Of a stretch of DNA of 64,000 nt, positions 30,901 through 47,877 are shown piece after piece. Every line of letters begins with the position of its first letter. The first letter of the stretch is position 1. This stretch comes from Patescibacteria group bacterium (GTDB lineage: Bacteria > Patescibacteriota > Minisyncoccia > Phycocordibacterales > PALSA-1337): assembly GCA_038061795.1 (NCBI GenBank), contig JBBTYL010000003.1:41-64040 (forward strand), in the 5' to 3' direction. The notes below the pieces were generated by a model. It was given only the letters and a program-made list of their open reading frames with translations. It was not told the origin of the DNA and made no database searches. Made by a program: the position numbers and the translations under genes.

Positions 30901-31467
30901 TTAGTATTTTCGTATCACGCCTTTGACCACTGCTGCAATTCTCATGTCGTTTTCAGGATAAATTGGTCCGTATTTCTTGTTTGCAGGTTGCAAATAGAAA
31001 GTGTTCCCTTTTTTCTTAAAATACTTCATTGTCCATCCTCCATCAACTTCAGCAATGACAATATCATTCTCTTTTGGATCATCAGTTCGCTCGGCTATAA
31101 CTAGATCTCCTTCATTTATTCCAGCCTCGATCATTGAATCCCCTTTTACTTTCAAAAGAAAAGATGCTGGCCTGTTTTTAATCAAATAGTTATCGAGATT
31201 GAGCGTATCGAGAGCCTCCTCTTCTGCAACAGTCGGGATGCCGGCTTCGACAAGTCCCAAAAGCTTAACTTCCTGAAAAAGATTCTTCGGGGTAAGCCTT
31301 CCTGATTCATCTTTATCGACAAAGCCAGCATCAATGAGCTTATTGATGACCTTGTAGACTGCATTCTTGGACTTGAAACCGAGAAGCTTCATGATTTCCG
31401 CGTATGTCGGCATCCTCTTCTGCCGTTCATAAAATGCAAATATTTTGTTCTTGTAGGTTTCTATCAT
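30901..31467 (-). CDS. lexA: LexA repressor (S24 peptidase)
   Basis: Winged-HTH N-terminus (PTYAEIMKLLGFKSKNAVYKVINKLIDAGFV) and the S24 domain VKGDSMIEAGINEGDLVI...MKYFKK. Confidence 0.9.
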   Translation of the reverse strand: MIETYKNKIFAFYERQKRMPTYAEIMKLLGFKSKNAVYKVINKLIDAGFVDKDESGRLTPKNLFQEVKLLGLVEAGIPTVAEEEALDTLNLDNYLIKNRPASFLLKVKGDSMIEAGINEGDLVIAERTDDPKENDIVIAEVDGGWTMKYFKKKGNTFYLQPANKKYGPIYPENDMRIAAVVKGVIRKY

Positions 31468-31476
31468 TATTGAGTA

Positions 31477-31686
31477 TTATAATACGAAGCTCGCAAGAAC
31501 GTGAGACATCCTTCTGAGCACGCTTGTTCGTGGCCGGCAGTTCGTTATGTAAAACTGCGACGCAAGAAACTTATGCCTTCGCGCTTCAGCCTTGTACGGA
31601 AGGCCCTTTATGATCTTGAGATCAATGACTTCATTCAGCTTCTTGATTTCCTTCCTAATGGTGATTTTTTGAAAAAATGTGCTCAT
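31477..31686 (-). CDS. Hypothetical 69-aa basic protein, first gene of the lexA operon
   Basis: ORF ends 10 nt before lexA and lies directly downstream of the LexA-box promoter. Confidence 0.45.
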   Translation of the reverse strand: MSTFFQKITIRKEIKKLNEVIDLKIIKGLPYKAEARRHKFLASQFYITNCRPRTSVLRRMSHVLASFVL

Positions 31687-31734
31687 AACTTTTTATTGAT
31701 TAATGTTGCAATGCAACGTTTCTGTTATGTATAT

Positions 31735-31763
31735 AGTATAAGTGAACAATCGTTCACCTGCAA
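31735..31763 (-). promoter_or_regulatory. Promoter TTGCAG-N17-TATACT of the lexA operon
   Basis: -35 at 31758..31763 and -10 at 31735..31740, with a 17-nt spacer that contains the LexA box. Confidence 0.6.
31742..31757. promoter_or_regulatory. LexA operator (Cheo-box type GAAC-N4-GTTC) within the perfect palindrome GTGAACAATCGTTCAC
   Basis: GAACAATCGTTC at 31744..31755 matches the Gram-positive-type SOS box. It lies inside the promoter spacer upstream of lexA. Confidence 0.7.
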
Positions 31764-31879
31764 GGGGGGACTGGGGATAACTCAAATTGGAAAGGAAAAA
31801 CTGGCTGATGCCAGTCTTTTCTTTCGTGGTAGACTTCAGTATTGAAAATGTAAACCAAGTTATAAGAGAACTTGAATAC

Positions 31880-32458
31880 CTAGAAAGTATTTTGTAACGC
31901 CTTAACAGTTTCAACTAATTTTTCTGGTTCTGCTACACTTACATTAAATGTAGTTAGTAGTGGGAACACATCGTTTACATTTCCTAAATGATCACGGTAC
32001 TGTAGCGGTGTATTAAATTCAAAACATACTGCTCTAGGAACGTTTACGAGGAAAAGCTCGAATGGGAAACGGCCAATTGATGTTCTCTTAGGATTTTCCG
32101 TAACATAAACATTTTTAATATTAGAAATTTGAAAATAAAACTGAAATTTCACACGACCAAAAGCCATATAAAAGTTTTCTGGAACTTCTTTGTAAAGTCC
32201 CTTATACCACAATTTATCACCGAGCGAAATTATCCTGCCATCCTTGGTTACCGTGACTTTTCTTGAAAAGCCCCTGAAATAAATTACTACGAATAATATA
32301 TAAAATAGATAGAATGCAATTGCAAGGTAGGTCATTTCACTTCCTATAAGTGTACTCATGAGCAAAAGAGCTGGCACACTCACAACAATTATCCATATTA
32401 GGATAAACTTCTGGGACTTTGAAAGCGCGTTCCTAAAGTTGATATTGTGTATGGACAT
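31880..32458 (-). CDS. Hypothetical membrane protein (2 N-terminal TM helices plus a soluble domain), AT-rich
   Basis: 192-aa ORF. No family recognised. Confidence 0.5.
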   Translation of the reverse strand: MSIHNINFRNALSKSQKFILIWIIVVSVPALLLMSTLIGSEMTYLAIAFYLFYILFVVIYFRGFSRKVTVTKDGRIISLGDKLWYKGLYKEVPENFYMAFGRVKFQFYFQISNIKNVYVTENPKRTSIGRFPFELFLVNVPRAVCFEFNTPLQYRDHLGNVNDVFPLLTTFNVSVAEPEKLVETVKALQNTF

Positions 32459-33307: not shown

Positions 33308-33346
33308 CCAAAAAGAAACCCGCACACTCTTTGCAGAGGCGCGGGT
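33308..33346 (-). terminator. GNRA-capped hairpin plus U-tract between promoter 33360..33388 and the NYN gene (terminator or attenuator)
   Basis: Minus strand ACCCGCGCCUCU-GCAA-AGAGUGUGCGGGU (12 bp, one bulge) followed by UUCUUUUUGG. Confidence 0.55.
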
Positions 33347-33359
33347 GACTTATGCGCAT

Positions 33360-33388
33360 ACTATACAGGAATATCCCACAAAAATCAA
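33360..33388 (-). promoter_or_regulatory. Promoter TTGATT-N17-TATAGT
   Basis: -35 at 33383..33388 and -10 at 33360..33365, with an exact 17-nt spacer. Same -35 hexamer as the ychF promoter. Confidence 0.5.
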
Positions 33389-33560
33389 CTGTGGAAAAGT
33401 GCGAACAGCTGGAGGATAAAACTTGAGACATTACAGACTCGGTCACGGGTTCTCGCCTGTTGGCTCACCCTGCGACCCGAGAAAAGGTATCCCACACCCT
33501 TTCTCCCTTCGCCTTCGCTCAGTCCGGCTTTCTCGTCCAAGTGAAGTCACTAGGCATAGA
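33389..33560 (-). ncRNA. Candidate structured RNA of unknown class (G+C-rich, purine-rich on the minus strand)
   Basis: No credible ORF. Nested helices by eye (CUCGGGUC...GACCGAG, GAGAAAGG...CCUUUUCUC, ACUUGGAC...GUCUCAAGU). Lies directly after tRNA-Ala. Strand and ends are uncertain. Confidence 0.25.
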
Positions 33561-33589
33561 AAAAAGAGTGACAGGTGTCACTCTTTTTT
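33560..33589. terminator. Bidirectional terminator AAAAAAGAGUGAC-N4-GUCACUCUUUUUU downstream of tRNA-Ala
   Basis: Perfect 8-bp stem flanked by an A6 run and a T6 run. Confidence 0.65.
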
Positions 33590-33596
33590 CATGCTG

Positions 33597-33669
33597 TGGA
33601 CCCTACAGGACTCGAACCTGCCACCCCCTCATTGCAAATGAGGTGCTCTACCAGATGAGCTAAGGGCCC
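33597..33669 (-). tRNA. tRNA-Ala (anticodon UGC), CCA not encoded
   Basis: Hand-folded cloverleaf, 73 nt. Anticodon loop UUUGCAA, G3:U70 alanine identity pair, GGTTCGAGTCC T-arm. Confidence 0.93.
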
Positions 33670-33679
33670 AGTGGAAAAT

Positions 33680-33707
33680 ATTCTACCCTATTTCTTGTTA
33701 ATTGCAA
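33680..33707 (-). promoter_or_regulatory. tRNA-Ala promoter TTGCAA-N16-TAGAAT
   Basis: -35 at 33702..33707 (inside the ddl 3' end) and -10 at 33680..33685. The tRNA 5' end lies 10 nt after the -10. Confidence 0.5.
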
Positions 33708-34656
33708 GCTGGACGATATGATCAAGAAAATGCTCAAGCGAAGCGCCGACTGAGTGAAGCGCCTTTGGAATAAGAGACTCTTCAGTGAGTCCTGGCAGCG
33801 TATTAGTCTCGAGGATAAAGATGCCTCGCTTCGGATGGATCATGAAATCGGAGCGCGAATAGTGGCGGAGTCCGAGAGCCTGATGTGCCTGCTTTGCCAT
33901 CTGCTCCAATTCCCTCTTTTGAGTCTCTGTAAAATTACCAGGAACAATCTCATCCGACAATCCGCCATACTTCGCTTCAAAGTCAAAAAACCTGTCTCCA
34001 TGAGGACGTATTTCAATCGGCGGTAAAGCATAGAGATCATGGTCACGATAACCATCGACAACTCCGACAGTTGCCTCAATCCCATCAATAAATTCTTCGA
34101 TCAAAACGGAGTTGCTGTGTTCGAAAGCTTGCCTAATTGCTTCTTCCAATTCAGGAAAGCCCCTTACTATCTTCACCCCGACCGATGATCCGCTTGAAGT
34201 CGGCTTCACAATGACCGGCAAAGGAAATTTTTGAAACGCCTTATGAGCTTCGACGCTGATGTTCTGAAGAGATTCAAGCAGCAATGACTGCGGAGTTTTC
34301 ATGTTCTCCTTTTTGTAGACATTCTTTGAAAGCTGCTTGTTCATTCCGATAGCTGAAGCAAAAGAACCTGAGCCAGTAAAGGGAATCCCGTGTGTCTCAA
34401 GCGTATGCTGAACCTTCCCATCCTCGCCGTAGTGGCCGTGGAGCGCATTGAAAATAACATCAAAATGATTGAGTGCGACATGGGGCTTTATAGGAAGGCC
34501 GTGCATATGCCAAACGCCTTTCTTGTCTATAAGGATATCCCTCACGCTATATTTATCTGTGGGGAGATGATTCAAAACCGTTGCGCCAGTTTTCAGCGAA
34601 ACTTCATACTCGTTGCTTGGTCCTCCCCGAAGGACCCCGACGCGGGTTTTGTGCAT
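33688..34656 (-). CDS. ddl: D-alanine--D-alanine ligase
   Basis: VGVLRGGPSNEYEVSLKTG start and ATP-grasp motifs. Start set at MHKTRVG (ATG at 34656), 7 nt after TATAAT 34664..34669. The ORF-track N-terminal extension to 34878 runs through a terminator. Confidence 0.9.
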   Translation of the reverse strand: MHKTRVGVLRGGPSNEYEVSLKTGATVLNHLPTDKYSVRDILIDKKGVWHMHGLPIKPHVALNHFDVIFNALHGHYGEDGKVQHTLETHGIPFTGSGSFASAIGMNKQLSKNVYKKENMKTPQSLLLESLQNISVEAHKAFQKFPLPVIVKPTSSGSSVGVKIVRGFPELEEAIRQAFEHSNSVLIEEFIDGIEATVGVVDGYRDHDLYALPPIEIRPHGDRFFDFEAKYGGLSDEIVPGNFTETQKRELEQMAKQAHQALGLRHYSRSDFMIHPKRGIFILETNTLPGLTEESLIPKALHSVGASLEHFLDHIVQLAINKK

Positions 34657-34674
34657 ATGAATCATTATACTATG

Positions 34675-34795
34675 GAAAAAATAAACGTGCCGACAAGGTT
34701 TCCCCTGCCGGCACGAATTCACATGCTCCGAGTAAAAGCTCTCGGAGCGACTTTGAACCACTGGGTAAACAAAGAACGATTTCACGTGTGGGCTA
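34675..34795 (-). ncRNA. Candidate small RNA 2 (about 120 nt), delimited by a promoter and a terminator
   Basis: Downstream of promoter 34802..34829. Internal hairpin CUCCGAG-N8-CUCGGAG. Ends in the 12-bp GAAA-capped hairpin 34687..34714 plus GUUUAUUUUUU. No ORF. Confidence 0.4.
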
Positions 34796-34801
34796 GAATA
34801 A

Positions 34802-34829
34802 TTTATATCACACCACGGCAATTTTGCAA
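34802..34829 (-). promoter_or_regulatory. Promoter TTGCAA-N16-TATAAA with an extended-10 TG
   Basis: -35 at 34824..34829 and -10 at 34802..34807. TGA immediately precedes the -10. Confidence 0.5.
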
Positions 34830-34953
34830 ATAAAAACGCTGCAGGATCGGGCGAACGGAGGAACCGTTTACCGACCAATCCTGCAACGGGAATGTTTCCA
34901 AGGCCTTAGTGGATGGACGCCACGACAACCCTTAGAGGAAACAAAATTCAACT
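34828..34953 (-). ncRNA. Candidate small RNA 1 (about 125 nt), delimited by a promoter and a terminator
   Basis: Downstream of promoter 34961..34989. Helices GUUUCC...GGAAAC and GUGG...CCAC. The 3' extended hairpin 34837..34888 has an 11-bp basal stem followed by UUUUUAUUU. No ORF. Confidence 0.4.
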
Positions 34954-34960
34954 AGGTAAT

Positions 34961-34989
34961 ATTATACCACCTTTTCAACTACTTTGCAA
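34961..34989 (-). promoter_or_regulatory. Near-consensus promoter TTGCAA-N17-TATAAT overlapping the uvrC stop
   Basis: -35 at 34984..34989 and -10 at 34961..34966. The transcript start is not an AUG. Confidence 0.6.
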
Positions 34990-36202
34990 CTCTTTTCAGG
35001 AAGGCTCTATTTCTAAGCCTTTTATGATACGCGATTGCAAATCGATGCGACTCGCTATTGGCAAGCAGAATGTCCTTACCATGCACCTCAAACATCTTTT
35101 CATCACCAAGAAAATGGTCTGGTTTGTGTGCTTCATTCTTTACAATAGAAACAATCGGAATGTTTTTAACAATTTCCTTTGCTACATTCAATTGGCCCAT
35201 CCCTCCATCGATAGCGATAAGATCTGGGAGCTTCCATTCTGGATGATTGAAACGGCGAGTAAGGATTTCATTCAATGCGGCAGTGTCATTATTCGCATCC
35301 TTTGATATTTTAAATTTTTTGTACTGAGATTTTTGCGCTTCGCCATTTATAACAACTGTCATGACGCCAACAGTATCCTTTCCTGACATGTGAGCAATAT
35401 CGTATGCTTCGATCCGAAAACCCTCAATATTTTCTATTGCTTCTACTGATTTAATCAGCGACACATCCTGAATATGATTCAAAGCATAAAGCGTGTTGCG
35501 CACTTTTTGAGCTTTTTCGAATTCCTGTACTGCCACATGCTCATTCATCTCTTTTTCAAGCGTTTTTATGAGCTGACCTTTTTTCCCTTCAAAAAAGAGG
35601 ACAAGATTTCGGATTGTTTTCTGATAGTCCTTCTTCGCTTCGGGCGAATCTGTATCCGGAGAAAGACCGAGAGACCGGTAAAAAGCCTCCTGATGCCTGA
35701 GTGTTGCTTTGGCATCACGAAATGGGAAAATCTTACGTACGATCTTGAGTGCATCACGAAGAAGTGTGCCTTGTGGGTATGGTCCAAACTGATACTTAAT
35801 CTTGAAGCCGAGTTTTTCTTCATCGAGCTTCTCAAGTGTACGCCCTCGGGCGATGATTATGCGAGGAAATTCTTCGTCGCTGATAATGAGATAGTTGTAG
35901 CTTTTATTGTCTTTTTCCTTCGTATTGAAATACGGCAGATGCTTCTTGATTTCATTTGATTCAAGAATGATCGCTTCAAGAACTGAATCAGTCTGCATGT
36001 GTTCGATGGTAGAAGCCTTTGTGACCATGTCCACAAGCAGTGGACCACGAGTGGCAATAAGGTCATTGCTGAAATAGCTACGCACGCGATCATAGAGCGA
36101 GGTTGCTCGTCCGATATAGAGGATATTTCCTTGAGAATCCTTAAAAAAATAAACTCCAGGAGCCTCTGGTAAGGATAGTTTTTTGAAGTCTTGACTAATC
36201 AT
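34979..36202 (-). CDS. uvrC: Excinuclease ABC subunit C, short form lacking the C-terminal (HhH)2 domain
   Basis: GIY-YIG (PGVYFFKDSQGNILYIGRATSLYDRVRSYF), the UvrBC-interaction region and the RNase H-like endonuclease (IEAYDIAHMSGKDTVG). Start at MISQDF, 7 nt after the -10 TACACT. Confidence 0.88.
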   Translation of the reverse strand: MISQDFKKLSLPEAPGVYFFKDSQGNILYIGRATSLYDRVRSYFSNDLIATRGPLLVDMVTKASTIEHMQTDSVLEAIILESNEIKKHLPYFNTKEKDNKSYNYLIISDEEFPRIIIARGRTLEKLDEEKLGFKIKYQFGPYPQGTLLRDALKIVRKIFPFRDAKATLRHQEAFYRSLGLSPDTDSPEAKKDYQKTIRNLVLFFEGKKGQLIKTLEKEMNEHVAVQEFEKAQKVRNTLYALNHIQDVSLIKSVEAIENIEGFRIEAYDIAHMSGKDTVGVMTVVINGEAQKSQYKKFKISKDANNDTAALNEILTRRFNHPEWKLPDLIAIDGGMGQLNVAKEIVKNIPIVSIVKNEAHKPDHFLGDEKMFEVHGKDILLANSESHRFAIAYHKRLRNRAFLKRVAK

Positions 36203-36209
36203 TAATATG

Positions 36210-36238
36210 AGTGTACAGTATATTTCGAATAAGTTCAA
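36210..36238 (-). promoter_or_regulatory. uvrC promoter TTGAAC-N17-TACACT, with the ATG 7 nt after the -10
   Basis: -35 at 36233..36238, -10 at 36210..36215, ATG at 36202. Confidence 0.55.
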
Positions 36239-36266
36239 CTGCAGCTAACCCTGAGAGGACCTTAAC

Positions 36267-36713
36267 ATGACCCTAACATATTTGACGAAACGATTCTTAC
36301 GGTGGCTAATCAATCTGGATGCCATTAATAAACCTATGCCAGATCTGCTACCCAGCGACCGCCCTCTCATTGCAGGCGGTGCTGCTGTAGTCTTTACCAG
36401 TATATGTTATCTGATGCACTGGATCGGATATGGCGCTACGGCGCTCATCTGTTTGGTATTGTTGATCGTGTTACTCTGGACACATGTCAAACGGGCAGTG
36501 AGCATTATTTACTGGTCATGGTTTATCTGGAACCTGATTGGATGGTTCAACGCCTACGGTGCGTTCGGACCTGATGCCCCAACATTCTTTAAGCCAGCAA
36601 TACTGGCCTTAGCCGGACCCATTTACATCCTTTGCGTCATTGCCATTAACATATATCGGTGGCGATGCAGGGAAAAGGATGAGGACAGGTTGTCATTGTC
36701 CTCACACCAATGA
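36267..36713 (+). CDS. Hypothetical 4-TM membrane protein (148 aa), plus strand, visibly G+C-richer
   Basis: ATG preceded by AGAGGA with 7-nt spacing. Followed by terminator 36732..36767. Confidence 0.6.
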   Translation: MTLTYLTKRFLRWLINLDAINKPMPDLLPSDRPLIAGGAAVVFTSICYLMHWIGYGATALICLVLLIVLLWTHVKRAVSIIYWSWFIWNLIGWFNAYGAFGPDAPTFFKPAILALAGPIYILCVIAINIYRWRCREKDEDRLSLSSHQ

Positions 36714-36731
36714 AATCACTTTTTCACAGAC

Positions 36732-36767
36732 GCGCCTCTTATGTATGATGAGGCGCTGTTTTTTATT
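36732..36767 (+). terminator. Rho-independent terminator of 36267..36713
   Basis: GCGCCUC-N11-GAGGCGC followed by UGUUUUUUAUU. Confidence 0.65.
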
Positions 36768-36774
36768 CTAAATA

Positions 36775-39375
36775 TTATTTCTCCAAAGCTCTCTTCAAAT
36801 ACTGACCGGTATATGACTTTTCATTCCGTGCAACGTCTTCCGGAGTTCCCTTTGCGACGATTTTTCCCCCTCGCGCGCCTCCATCCGGGCCGATGTCGAT
36901 AATGTAATCGGCGGATTTGATGAGATCGAGGTTATGTTCGATGACGACGACAGTATTCCCTTTTTCAACAAGTCTCTGAAGTATTTCAATGAGCTTTCGC
37001 ACATCTTCGTAGTGAAGCCCGACTGTCGGTTCGTCCAAAAGATAGATGGTCTTCTGCAAATGAGCACGATAAAGCTCCGAGGAAATCTTCACTCGCTGCG
37101 CTTCCCCGCCGGAAAGCGTCGTTGCGGACTGTCCGAGCTGGAGGTAGCCGAGGCCCACCTCCTGAAGCGTGCTGAGACGATCTGAAACTGCAGGAATATC
37201 CTCGAAGAATTTCAATCCTTCCTCGACAGTCATTTGCAAAATATCATAAACGTTTTTTCCCTTGTATTTGATATCAAGCGTCTCCTTCATGAATCTTTTG
37301 CCATTGCAAACTTCACAAGGAACATAAACAGTCGGCAAGAAGTGCATCTCGACAGCAATTTCCCCGTTGCCCTGGCATGCCTCACAACGTCCGCCTTTGA
37401 CATTGAAAGAAAACCGTCCTGGTCCCCAGCCGTGAGCGCGGGCCTCTGCAGACGCAGCAAAGAGGTCTCGGATATGCGTCCACGCGCCCGTATAAGTGAC
37501 TGGATTCGATCGAGGCGTTCGTCCAATAGCTGACTGGTCAATAAGGATGGTTCGACCGAGGTATTCGCTGCCAGCAAAGCTCGTGCAATTGTAAACCTGA
37601 GCCGTTCGGTGTCGAAATTCAAGTCGAGCCTGCAAGTTTTTGTGAAGAATCTCATACATGAATGAAGATTTTCCTGATCCGGATACTCCAGTGATCACGT
37701 TAAGGCAGCCGAGAGGAATTTCAGCATTCATATCATTTATATTGAAAATATTTCCGCCCTTTACAACAATCTTTCCTTTCGGCTCGCGGCGAGTCTCTGG
37801 AACCTCGACTTTCTTTTCTCCCCGAAGGTACGAAAGCGTAAGGGAACCGGAAACATTCTTCTTCGCCGTAAGAAGCTCATCAAGATAGCCAGAAACGACG
37901 ACCCCACCTCCATGAACACCTGCACCAGGTCCGATATCGATAATATAATCAGACGCAAACATCGTATCCTCATCGTGCTCAACGACAATAATTGTATTTC
38001 CTAGATCACGAAGGCTCGTCAGGGTCTTGATGAGGCGATCATTATCTCTCTGGTGAAGGCCTATAGTCGGCTCATCAAGCACATAAAGTGCCCCTACAAG
38101 GCCAGAACCGAGCTGCGAAGCAAGGCGGATGCGCTGCGCTTCCCCTCCAGAAAGCGTGTGGGCGCGTCGATCAAGGGTCAGATATTCTATGCCGACATTT
38201 ATCATGAATTGCAGACGCGATTCGATTTCCTTAAGAATGACTTTTGCAATCTCTTTTTCTGTTTCGGTCAGCTTTATTTCATCAAAAAAGATTTCCGCCT
38301 GTTCAATCGACATCGAAGTCACATCAACGATGTTCTTATCATTAATTCTTACATGCAGGGCCTCGTCACGGAGACGCGCACCCTTGCAGGCCTGACAGTC
38401 CTCATTGCTAAAAAATTCCTTTGTGCCAAGCCCATTGCAGGTGGTGCAGGCTCCATACGGAGAATTGAAAGAGAACAGACGGGGTTCAATCTCTGGATAT
38501 GAAAAACCGTCGTACGGGCACATGAACTTTACTGACATGAGCTTTTCTTCATCCGGAAACTCAATTTTAATAAGTCCTTGGGCCTCCTCGATCGCTTTTT
38601 CAAGGGCCTCTGAAAGACGTTCCTTGGCATTATCACGCTGCTTGTTATTGTCCTTGAGATTATTCTTGAATTCGCTCAGAAAAAGCTCATCGACAAGCAC
38701 ATCAATGTCATGCTTCTTATTCTTATCAAGGATGATCTGCTCTCGAAGACGCATGACCTTTCCATCAATCTTCACCCTGTCATATCCCTTTCCGAGAAGA
38801 TCATAAAGAAGCTGGTAGTATTCGCCTTTTCGTCCGACGACAATCGGCGCATAGACTTTTACCTTCTGATCGCTGACCTCGACGCCCATGACGGTCTTTT
38901 CTGTTTTTTTCTCTGGCTTATTGTGAGTCGTCACCTGTCTGATGATGGTTTCAAGAATTTCTTCTTTTGAAATTCGATGGATTTCGCGTCCGCATGTCAG
39001 GCAGTGTGGCTTACCAACGCGGGCAAAAAGAATTCTAAGGTAGTCGTAAATTTCCGTAATCGTCGCTACGGTCGATCGAGGATTGTTTGATCGGGACTTT
39101 TGGTCAATTGAAATCGCAGGAGAAAGACCGATGATCTCATCGACATCAGGCTTCTGCATCTGACGAAGGAACTGGCGCGCGTATGAAGAAAGGGATTCGA
39201 CATAGCGGCGCTGCCCCTCAGCAAAGATCGTATCGAAAGCAAGCGATGACTTTCCAGACCCAGAAAGGCCGGTAATGGCCACTATCTTGTTGCGTGGCAT
39301 TTCGACCGTAATATTCTTGAGATTGTGAGTGCGAGCTCCCCGGACAATGATTTTTTCATCTGTCTTTTTAACCAT
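36775..39375 (-). CDS. uvrA: Excinuclease ABC subunit A
   Basis: Two ABC ATPase modules ([26 protein letters not shown] twice) and zinc-finger cysteines. 866 aa. Confidence 0.95.
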
Positions 39376-42282: not shown

Positions 42283-42483
42283 ATGAAAGGCACAGAAAGA
42301 CATACGAATATGAAAAAAACCGTAATTGAGATTCCGCCATCTTCTTGGAAACGCGGTGGGCAACAACCTCGGAAGAGCTTCAAACATGACGGAGAGGCTC
42401 AGGAAACAGGACGACGCCCAAAATCCTCGTGCAACACGAAAAAGGAGGGCTCCAAAAGGGATGACCCCCTCGAGCTCCTTTGA
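42283..42483 (+). other. Plus-strand transcription unit of unknown nature: a 66-aa highly basic ORF or a structured RNA
   Basis: Promoter-like TTGAAG-N17-TACAAT (42249..42277) 5 nt before the ATG. Purine-rich, strongly self-complementary sequence. Dedicated terminator at 42508..42541. Confidence 0.3.
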
Positions 42484-47325: not shown

Positions 47326-47877
47326 TTATGCTTTATAAAAATCTACTTCCTCATAATAATATGACTGTTCAATACCCTTCATAAAAACATCGCGATCATC
47401 GATTTTATCAGTTAGAGCTGCATGTAAAAGCTCGCGAATTTCGAGGTCGTTCACTGGGCTTCGCTGCATAGCATTCAAATAATCCGCTTTATCAATCTTC
47501 GCCCAATCAATGCATCGCTTGAGGTTTTTTTTAAAAATCAAATCCAACCAGATTCTCATACTACGTCCATTGCCTTCCATAAACGGATGAGCTATATTCA
47601 TTTCCACATATTTCGCTATAATTTCCTCAAAAGTGCTTTCTGGCATAATGCTGATGCTTTTGAGACTTTCACTCAAATATAAACAAGAGGCGAATCTAAA
47701 TCCCCCCTTGCTCATGTCTTTCGTGCGGATCTGACCGGCAAAATCATAAAGTCCTTTGAACAGATATTCATGAACCTGTTGCAGGCCTTTGACCGTGCCC
47801 ACCTCGAAACTTTCAATTTCTTGGCTGCCAAACAGTTTTTTTGCGCGTTCCTTGCTGATTGCATCGACGTTTTGCAT
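47326..47877 (-). CDS. Fic-domain protein (putative AMPylase)
   Basis: Canonical Fic motif [12 protein letters not shown]. 183 aa. The C-terminal SYYYEE resembles, imperfectly, the class III inhibitory motif (S/T)xxxE(G/N). Confidence 0.88.

Follow-up and report, generated by a model that had tools for sequence, protein, structure and literature searches.

Between uvrC and ddl, a 64,000-nucleotide stretch of contig JBBTYL010000003.1 (assembly GCA_038061795.1, Patescibacteria group bacterium, positions 41 to 64,040), hereafter called the window, contains a spacer of 322 nucleotides (nt), and the surrounding genes are all on the minus strand. A preliminary description of this DNA had placed a dedicated small RNA gene, here called unit 1, in that spacer. 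Does the locus indeed hold such a gene, or is it the tail of uvrC with the remains of an old promoter? With moderate confidence, we consider unit 1 to be a candidate lineage-specific small non-coding RNA gene of ~125 nt. The absence of any Rfam match, sequence conservation, a structural bias in the substitutions and a promoter of the host's own type all supported this reading.

The promoter that had been proposed, a near-consensus TTGCAA-N17-TATAAT overlapping the uvrC stop codon, was found on the minus strand, as are all features described below. Its -35 box TTGCAA (34989-34984) lies in the last codons of uvrC (36202-34979) and is separated by a 17-nt spacer from the extended -10 box TGgTATAAT (34969-34961; TG at 34969-34968, TATAAT at 34966-34961). 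The uvrC stop codon TAG (34981-34979) falls within this spacer, next to the -35 box. A promoter scan gave the site a score of 10/12 with the TG, the highest in 33400-36400. When both strands of the 64-kb window were searched for a strict class of promoter (at least 5/6 matches to TTGCAA, a spacer of 16-18 nt, and TGnTATAAT), 2 sites were found, compared with 0.04 in composition-matched (mononucleotide) shuffles. The second site stands 6 nt before the ATG of a real, leaderless gene at 47877. The type of promoter thus matches that of the host's own functional promoters.

Where the transcript would start, and whether it could be translated, were judged from the other genes of the window. In at least 14 genes of annotated length, a TATAAT-like box precedes the ATG by 5-8 nt (for example at 34654-34669, 47877, 48946, 58636, 61774, 31467, 26666, and 23955), which identifies TTGC-N17-TGnTATAAT as the working promoter consensus of the host. 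Shine-Dalgarno-like tetramers were not enriched upstream of genes (7/65 vs. 8.1 ± 3.0 at random positions). We infer from these sequence features that translation starts here mostly from the 5'-terminal AUG of leaderless mRNAs, in agreement with the reported absence of the anti-Shine-Dalgarno motif of 16S rRNA in about half of Parcubacteria (PMC9297842). The -10-to-ATG spacing of the leaderless genes places the predicted start of unit 1 at 34954-34952, 7-9 nt past the -10 box. The RNA would begin with (U)AGUUGAAUUUU, and the predicted transcript (34953-34828) contains no ATG. Given leaderless initiation, its AGUUG start and its lack of AUG indicate a non-coding transcript, as the preliminary description had proposed. 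That it encodes a small protein instead is extremely unlikely. Open reading frames (ORFs) with a GTG or TTG start do exist, but the longest, of 34 codons, runs through the terminator hairpin and the U-run, no ORF is conserved in the relatives L046, L048, and L073, and a 1-nt deletion found in two other loci (L001 and L044) falls in the RNA body.

The minimum free energy (MFE) fold of unit 1 reached -49.4 kcal/mol, compared with -31.1 ± 3.6 kcal/mol for shuffled sequences (z = -5.15), none of 200 shuffles being as stable. It consists of two separate hairpin domains. The 5' domain is a three-tier hairpin (34943-34893; z = -2.0 on its own) made of the helices P1 (34943-34937 with 34899-34893), P2 (34932-34927 with 34905-34900), and P3 (34923-34920 with 34912-34909). 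P3 is closed by the apical loop CGUCCAU (34919-34913), which holds the sequence GUCCAU. The 3' domain, 52 nt long (34888-34837), is a terminator hairpin that is GC-rich and branched, with a 14-bp basal stem and an inner stem of 3+4 bp, and is followed directly by the U-run UUUUUAUUU (34836-34828). An anti-Shine-Dalgarno-like UUCCUCC (34863-34857) extends from the apical loop of this hairpin (UUCCU) into the 3' strand of the inner stem, of which it takes up the first two bases. The helices previously read by eye were recovered in the MFE fold, namely GUUUCC/GGAAAC, AGGGUU/GGCCUU, and GUGG/CCAC in the 5' half, as well as the 3' hairpin with its U-run. The details of that hairpin had to be corrected: the basal stem, described as 11 bp, is a continuous 14-bp stem, and the inner stem given as UCGG/CCGA had one base in common with that 11-bp stem.

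A GC-rich hairpin directly followed by a U-run is what defines a Rho-independent terminator, and unit 1 ends in this way. In a crude scan of the window, which overlooked at least the terminator of unit 2 (see below), no U-run-associated hairpin was more stable than this 3' hairpin (-32 kcal/mol). A simple terminator scan with a loop limit of 3-8 nt did not pick it up. No further terminator was found between the uvrC stop codon and 34837, and the U-run presumably terminates the uvrC transcripts too. Because unit 1 lies physically in the 3' untranslated region (UTR) of uvrC and the two have a common terminator, the term 'stand-alone' used in the preliminary description is only partly apt.

We compared the locus with known RNA families. 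Rfam 15 cmscan of 34600-35050 gave no match even at E <= 10, which bears out the previous failure to match unit 1 by eye to tmRNA, SRP RNA, 6S RNA, RNase P RNA, or a riboswitch. The same search found only two tRNAs in the whole window, and only tRNAs in 16 related loci with analogous spacers. By blastn against 71 related loci, units 1 and 2 matched sequences of the same population and of the relative L047 only. The terminator core had no copy in viral contigs, and there was no second copy within the window. A region considered as a further family member (42338-42480) is probably not one (fold z = -0.2). A lookup of P0085 yielded a ddl fragment only.

Evidence for selection on unit 1 was obtained from related genomes. 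Ddl proteins identical to that of the window are encoded on contigs obtained from groundwater of the Hainich H41 well (0.1 and 0.2 μm filter fractions), and the nearest relatives in the genome collection are metagenome-assembled genomes labelled Candidatus Taylorbacteria or Parcubacteria. The host is an uncultured groundwater Candidatus Taylorbacteria (Parcubacteria, Candidate Phyla Radiation (CPR)). The relative that proved informative, L047, comes from the same well and has a 92% identical UvrC and one diverged copy of unit 1. The two copies of unit 1 were identical at 104/126 positions (82.5%), compared with 75/148 fourfold-degenerate sites (50.7%) in the adjoining uvrC (Fisher p = 3e-8). 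When taken alone, the 5' domain, dispensable for termination, gave a similar value (53/65, 81.5%; p = 2e-5). Furthermore, the differences affected 7/76 paired vs. 15/50 unpaired positions (p = 0.004). Of the seven changes at paired positions, three broke the pair and four preserved it by switching between G-U and Watson-Crick. Unit 1 is thus conserved above the neutral level, with substitutions biased by its structure, and the lack of conservation that would have spoken against the preliminary description was not observed. The covariation that had also been looked for was found in the GUCCAU hairpin of the wider family (see below), but not, in its two-sided form, within unit 1 itself.

Within the same population, unit 1 was 99-100% identical. 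One variant of it (L001:2716 and L044:3261) has a 1-nt deletion in the 5' strand of P2 (CUCUAAGGUUG vs. CUCUAAGGGUUG). We also compared window positions 33688-37200 with L045, a co-occurring strain of the same well. Identity was 100% at the 3' end of uvrA, fell to 94-95% in uvrC, returned to 100% across the spacer and the initial 357 nt of ddl, and was 94% in the remainder of ddl. This mosaic indicates recent homologous recombination.

To place unit 1 in a wider context, we gathered 83 further loci through relatives of UvrC and Ddl. They comprised 43 distinct uvrC-ddl spacers (42 without the 1-nt deletion variant of the window's spacer). When UvrC was at least ~70% identical, the spacers mostly measured 125-410 nt and most genomes had a promoter-RNA-terminator unit. 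Below ~70%, they mostly measured 12-40 nt, with the ddl -10 box right at the uvrC stop codon. The long spacers have a common architecture: a TTGCAA-type promoter, a structured RNA of 90-170 nt, a strong terminator, and then the 'UUUUUUAUUGUAUAAU-N6-AUG' of ddl. In 10 distinct related loci, the -35 box TTGCAA preceded the end of the uvrC stop codon by 11 nt, even where the RNA body differed. In L075, the RNA precedes ddl though the gene upstream is not uvrC.

The RNA bodies themselves turn over rapidly. L046 and L047 have 96% identical UvrC proteins, with 65% identity at fourfold sites and 87-90% in the flanks. Their RNA bodies could not be aligned by blastn, the alignment ending just past the -10 box and restarting in the U-run of the terminator. 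All-against-all blastn of 20 RNA bodies gave four weak pairs only, the bodies of the relatives being unalignable beyond motifs of 6-9 nt, and a MAFFT alignment of the 5' domains yielded no usable structural alignment. Folded without their terminators, the 5' domains of 11 members had z values of -0.7 to -5.0 (mean, about -2.5). The spacer reaches 965 nt in L052 and L068, with a ~200-codon ORF (by eye) in L052, and 2738 nt in L010. The uvrC-ddl junction is an insertion and turnover hot spot. A different conserved element was observed in the uvrC-ddl spacer of two more distant relatives with UvrC proteins 52-53% identical (L030:4224-4608 and L060:3230-3797). No Rfam family matched this element, which follows a promoter-like site and reads ACGGTC..GCTCTCAC..CACAGGGGAAGG..TAGTCCGTC.TGCGACTTACA; possibly it is a further unannotated RNA.

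This turnover is one of the grounds for the main rival explanation, which we regard as unlikely. It holds that unit 1 is the 3' UTR and terminator of uvrC plus a relic of the ancestral ddl promoter, and that its RNA is a terminated by-product with no function beyond termination and insulation of ddl. The ancestral promoter would have stood at the uvrC stop codon, and an insertion or duplication would have moved ddl, with a new -10 box, downstream. Such an origin is plausible in view of the short-spacer relatives (12-40 nt), in which the ddl -10 box lies at or after the uvrC stop codon. Unalignable RNA bodies among close relatives, the unrelated 965-nt and 2.7-kb insertions taken up by the spacer, and duplex predictions that yielded no target (see below) also fit a mere by-product. 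A by-product does not account, however, for a termination-independent 5' domain that is 81.5% identical when neutral sites are at 51%, nor for 5' domains that are more structured than shuffles. It also leaves unaccounted for a -10 box that lies outside uvrC and is yet near-consensus in lineages with differing RNA bodies, and strand-specific motifs and a covarying hairpin that are kept across RNA types. Both the 5' domain and the -10 box are conserved, which argues for present selection on the RNA product.

The short motifs were examined in the 20 RNA-bearing spacers. The sequence UCCUCC, in its fuller form (G)UUCCUCC(G), was present on the sense strand of 12/20 and on the antisense strand of none, which is 8-fold over background (p = 5e-8). 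UUGU (TTGT in the DNA) was enriched 3-fold, and a 5' R-GUUG with a U-rich tail recurred among the relatives. The converse sequence GGAGG occurred 15 times in antisense and a single time in sense orientation, and GGAGGA was not found on the sense strand. UCCUCC was often located in loops, 56% of the CCUCC bases being unpaired in the MFE folds vs. 39% of bases overall. In the closest clade, the GUCCAU loop was invariant in 5 RNA types, while all 5 pairs of its stem changed on both sides. In these stems, 88% of cells were paired vs. 36-52% in slid controls, and none of 500 shuffles reached 88%. A pseudoknot between the UCCUCCGAUGG box and the GUCCAU loop was considered and dropped, as it was inconsistent across members (by eye).

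Such rapidly evolving bodies with short conserved motifs, often in hairpin loops, one or two per unit and with tandem units in some genomes, recall the RNAs that titrate a protein. Unit 1 could accordingly be a sponge of the CsrB/RsmZ type, in which UCCUCC and UUGU in loops and linkers would sequester an RNA-binding protein. That the host has no Shine-Dalgarno sequences to serve as targets of a CCUCC seed is in keeping with this. We give this explanation a rather small chance, since one or two copies of the motif are few compared with the many that CsrB-type RNAs have, no protein emerged as a binding candidate, and only 56% of the CCUCC bases are unpaired, vs. 39% overall.

Several observations weigh against our own reading of unit 1 as a selected RNA gene. 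The unit-1 RNA proper has a single diverged copy, that of L047. The window/L047 pair contained no two-sided compensatory change, and with a single pair, classic covariation is not demonstrable. The terminator hairpin of L047 has two adjacent broken pairs, next to three one-sided consistent changes, and its terminator loop has UUCAACC in place of UUCCUCC. In the window, the 5' copy of the UCCUCC motif is degenerate (CCUCU). The motif statistics come from 20 spacers that are phylogenetically related. The 100% identity of unit 1 in L045 is uninformative on selection because it is part of the recombined block of 100% identity that includes the 5' end of ddl. Relatives with UvrC less than ~70% identical mostly have no unit, which indicates that it is dispensable. 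Finally, a target search by duplex prediction against ddl and 54 gene starts of the window was unremarkable.

The position of unit 1 just upstream of ddl raised the possibility that it is a riboswitch-like leader or attenuator acting in cis, with read-through into ddl when the terminator is bypassed. The RNA indeed always lies immediately upstream of ddl, even in L075, where the preceding gene is not uvrC, and a read-through RNA would have an A/U-rich, unstructured region before the ddl AUG. This possibility is very unlikely in view of the promoter that ddl has of its own. The ddl gene (start codon ATG at 34656-34654; N-terminus MHKTRVGVLRGG) is preceded by TATAAT (34669-34664) at a distance of 7 nt, which would give a leaderless ddl mRNA. 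A -10 box 5-8 nt before the ATG was present in 37/42 distinct loci, with or without an RNA and including those with spacers of 12-40 nt; the extended -10 box of ddl lies 6-7 nt before the ATG whether an RNA is there or not. As this promoter comes after the terminator, unit 1 is not a ddl leader. In addition, no conserved aptamer-like core was found, the bodies being wholly different at 96% UvrC identity. There was no alternative antiterminator pairing in the MFE or centroid folds, and no riboswitch match in Rfam.

A complete second unit, moreover, stands between unit 1 and ddl in the window. Unit 2 (34829-34676), a tandem promoter-RNA-terminator, follows directly after unit 1. Its promoter consists of TTGCAA (34829-34824), a 16-nt spacer, and TGaTATAAA (34810-34802), and its terminator is located at 34715-34686, with a U-run. 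The RNA, of ~105 nt, includes CGUUCUUUGUUU as well as a UCCGAG/CUCGGA hairpin; its fold has an energy of -47.6 kcal/mol (z = -4.9). No usable ORF is present, the AUG being immediately followed by UGA. L047 has no unit 2, its unit 1 being directly adjacent to the ddl promoter.

Taking unit 1 as an RNA gene, we propose that the promoter at the end of uvrC would drive an AUG-free transcript made of the 5' three-tier hairpin, the terminator hairpin, and the U-run. The terminator, which would also stop uvrC transcription, precedes the leaderless ddl promoter; in this genome, unit 2 separates the two. The RNA probably works in trans. Contacts with purine-rich RNA, or possibly with a protein that binds RNA, would be made by its exposed pyrimidine-rich elements, which are short and conserved: UCCUCC, GUCCAU, and the 5' GUUG/U-rich tail. 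The helices presenting them would be free to change, so that promoter, terminator, and motifs would persist while the RNA bodies turn over. The combination of a kept promoter and kept motifs with remodelled helices fits an RNA that would act through short exposed elements, as pairing seeds or protein sites. Pairing with the 5' end of ddl was considered and rejected: duplexfold of the full-length RNA gave z values of -2.7 to +1.6, mostly near 0, and seed-sized pieces ranked ddl 4th to 8th of 54 gene starts. A more speculative and improbable idea is that a family of fast-evolving RNAs displaying UCCUCC, in a lineage without Shine-Dalgarno-led initiation, might act as mimics or decoys of the 3' tail of 16S rRNA, or pair with GGAGG or with mRNA ends of the 5'-AUGGAC type. 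If true, these RNAs would control translation in a way that is specific to organisms with leaderless mRNAs and no Shine-Dalgarno sequences. As the RNA differs between co-occurring strains, the locus could, on this idea, also be strain-specific.

Among known systems, unit 1 can be compared with the type I 3'-UTR small RNAs (sRNAs) of enterobacteria, such as DapZ and MicL, whose promoter is embedded at least partly in the last section of the preceding coding sequence and which use the terminator of that mRNA. The position of the unit-1 -35 box in the last uvrC codons, the stop codon within the promoter spacer, the common terminator, and the short, structured RNA with a 3' terminator hairpin are all alike. 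Unit 1 differs in having no sequence or structure homology with them, in its CPR host, and in a body that turns over between close strains. The C-rich-loop sRNAs RsaE/RoxS of Firmicutes (RF01820), which pair with Shine-Dalgarno regions, may offer a parallel in their pyrimidine- or C-rich motifs in hairpin loops, including the terminator loop. UCCUCC was often in loops, but only 56% of the motif bases were unpaired, and the motif was not kept at each position (L047). Unit 1 has no Rfam match, its motif is UCCUCC rather than UCCC, and the Shine-Dalgarno class of targets is missing here, the tetramers being no more frequent than expected. With CsrB/RsmZ it shares fast-evolving bodies, loop motifs, a Rho-independent terminator, and tandem or paralogous copies; GGA is not the motif here, however, as GGAGG was mostly antisense, and the copies per RNA are few. 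An ordinary Rho-independent terminator would equally show a GC-rich hairpin and a U-run, and unit 1 must also stop uvrC, but such a terminator would not have its own near-consensus promoter, a conserved, structured 5' domain of 60 nt, or an unusually long (52 nt), branched hairpin. 6S RNA is a single rod of ~180 nt with a large central bubble, unlike the two hairpin domains and ~125 nt of unit 1, which gave no 6S match. Unit 1 would be an unannotated RNA family of a familiar kind, the promoter-to-terminator sRNA.

A few observations concern the neighbouring genes. Upstream of uvrC lies uvrA (39375-36775). UvrC is short (407 amino acids); its precomputed Pfam matches are GIY-YIG, UVR, and UvrC_RNaseH_dom, with none for the C-terminal helix-hairpin-helix domain, and this short form is common to all relatives found. 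On the other side of ddl, a tRNA-Ala gene (33669-33596) and its terminator are followed by a non-coding stretch of ~150 nt (within 33340-33560). The 3' part of this stretch (GGGTCG...GAGCCARCAGGCGAGRACYCGTGACCGAKTC) is conserved at L005:4330-4545, downstream of a tRNA with, by eye, a Glu anticodon, and at its end the L005 stretch repeats the tRNA 3' end exactly. Apart from the tRNA, Rfam gave no match at E <= 5. The stretch may be an integration-site remnant or a tRNA-linked element. At 31467-31880, a TTGCAG-17-TATACT promoter upstream of a gene for a LexA-like S24 peptidase is followed by a perfect palindrome, AACGTTGCATTGCAACATT, and an ORF of ~67 codons (MSTFFQKITIRKEI...). The palindrome may be an operator or SOS box. 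We considered and rejected LexA/SOS control for the promoter of unit 1, as just its -35 box TTGCAA resembles a half-site of this palindrome.

CPR bacteria are uncultured and have tiny, gene-dense genomes and an unusual translation machinery. To our knowledge, almost none of their regulatory RNAs have been described, and in the literature we found no description of CPR sRNAs or of leaderless CPR genes. Unit 1 is an sRNA candidate that is syntenic, has a promoter of a validated type, and for which there is evidence of purifying selection. The uvrC-ddl RNA locus also serves as a small marker for recombination and turnover at strain level in this groundwater population. The presence of an anti-Shine-Dalgarno-like motif in an apparently leaderless organism without Shine-Dalgarno sequences is a point of interest, and raises the question of RNA-based regulation where mRNAs are leaderless and Shine-Dalgarno pairing is absent.

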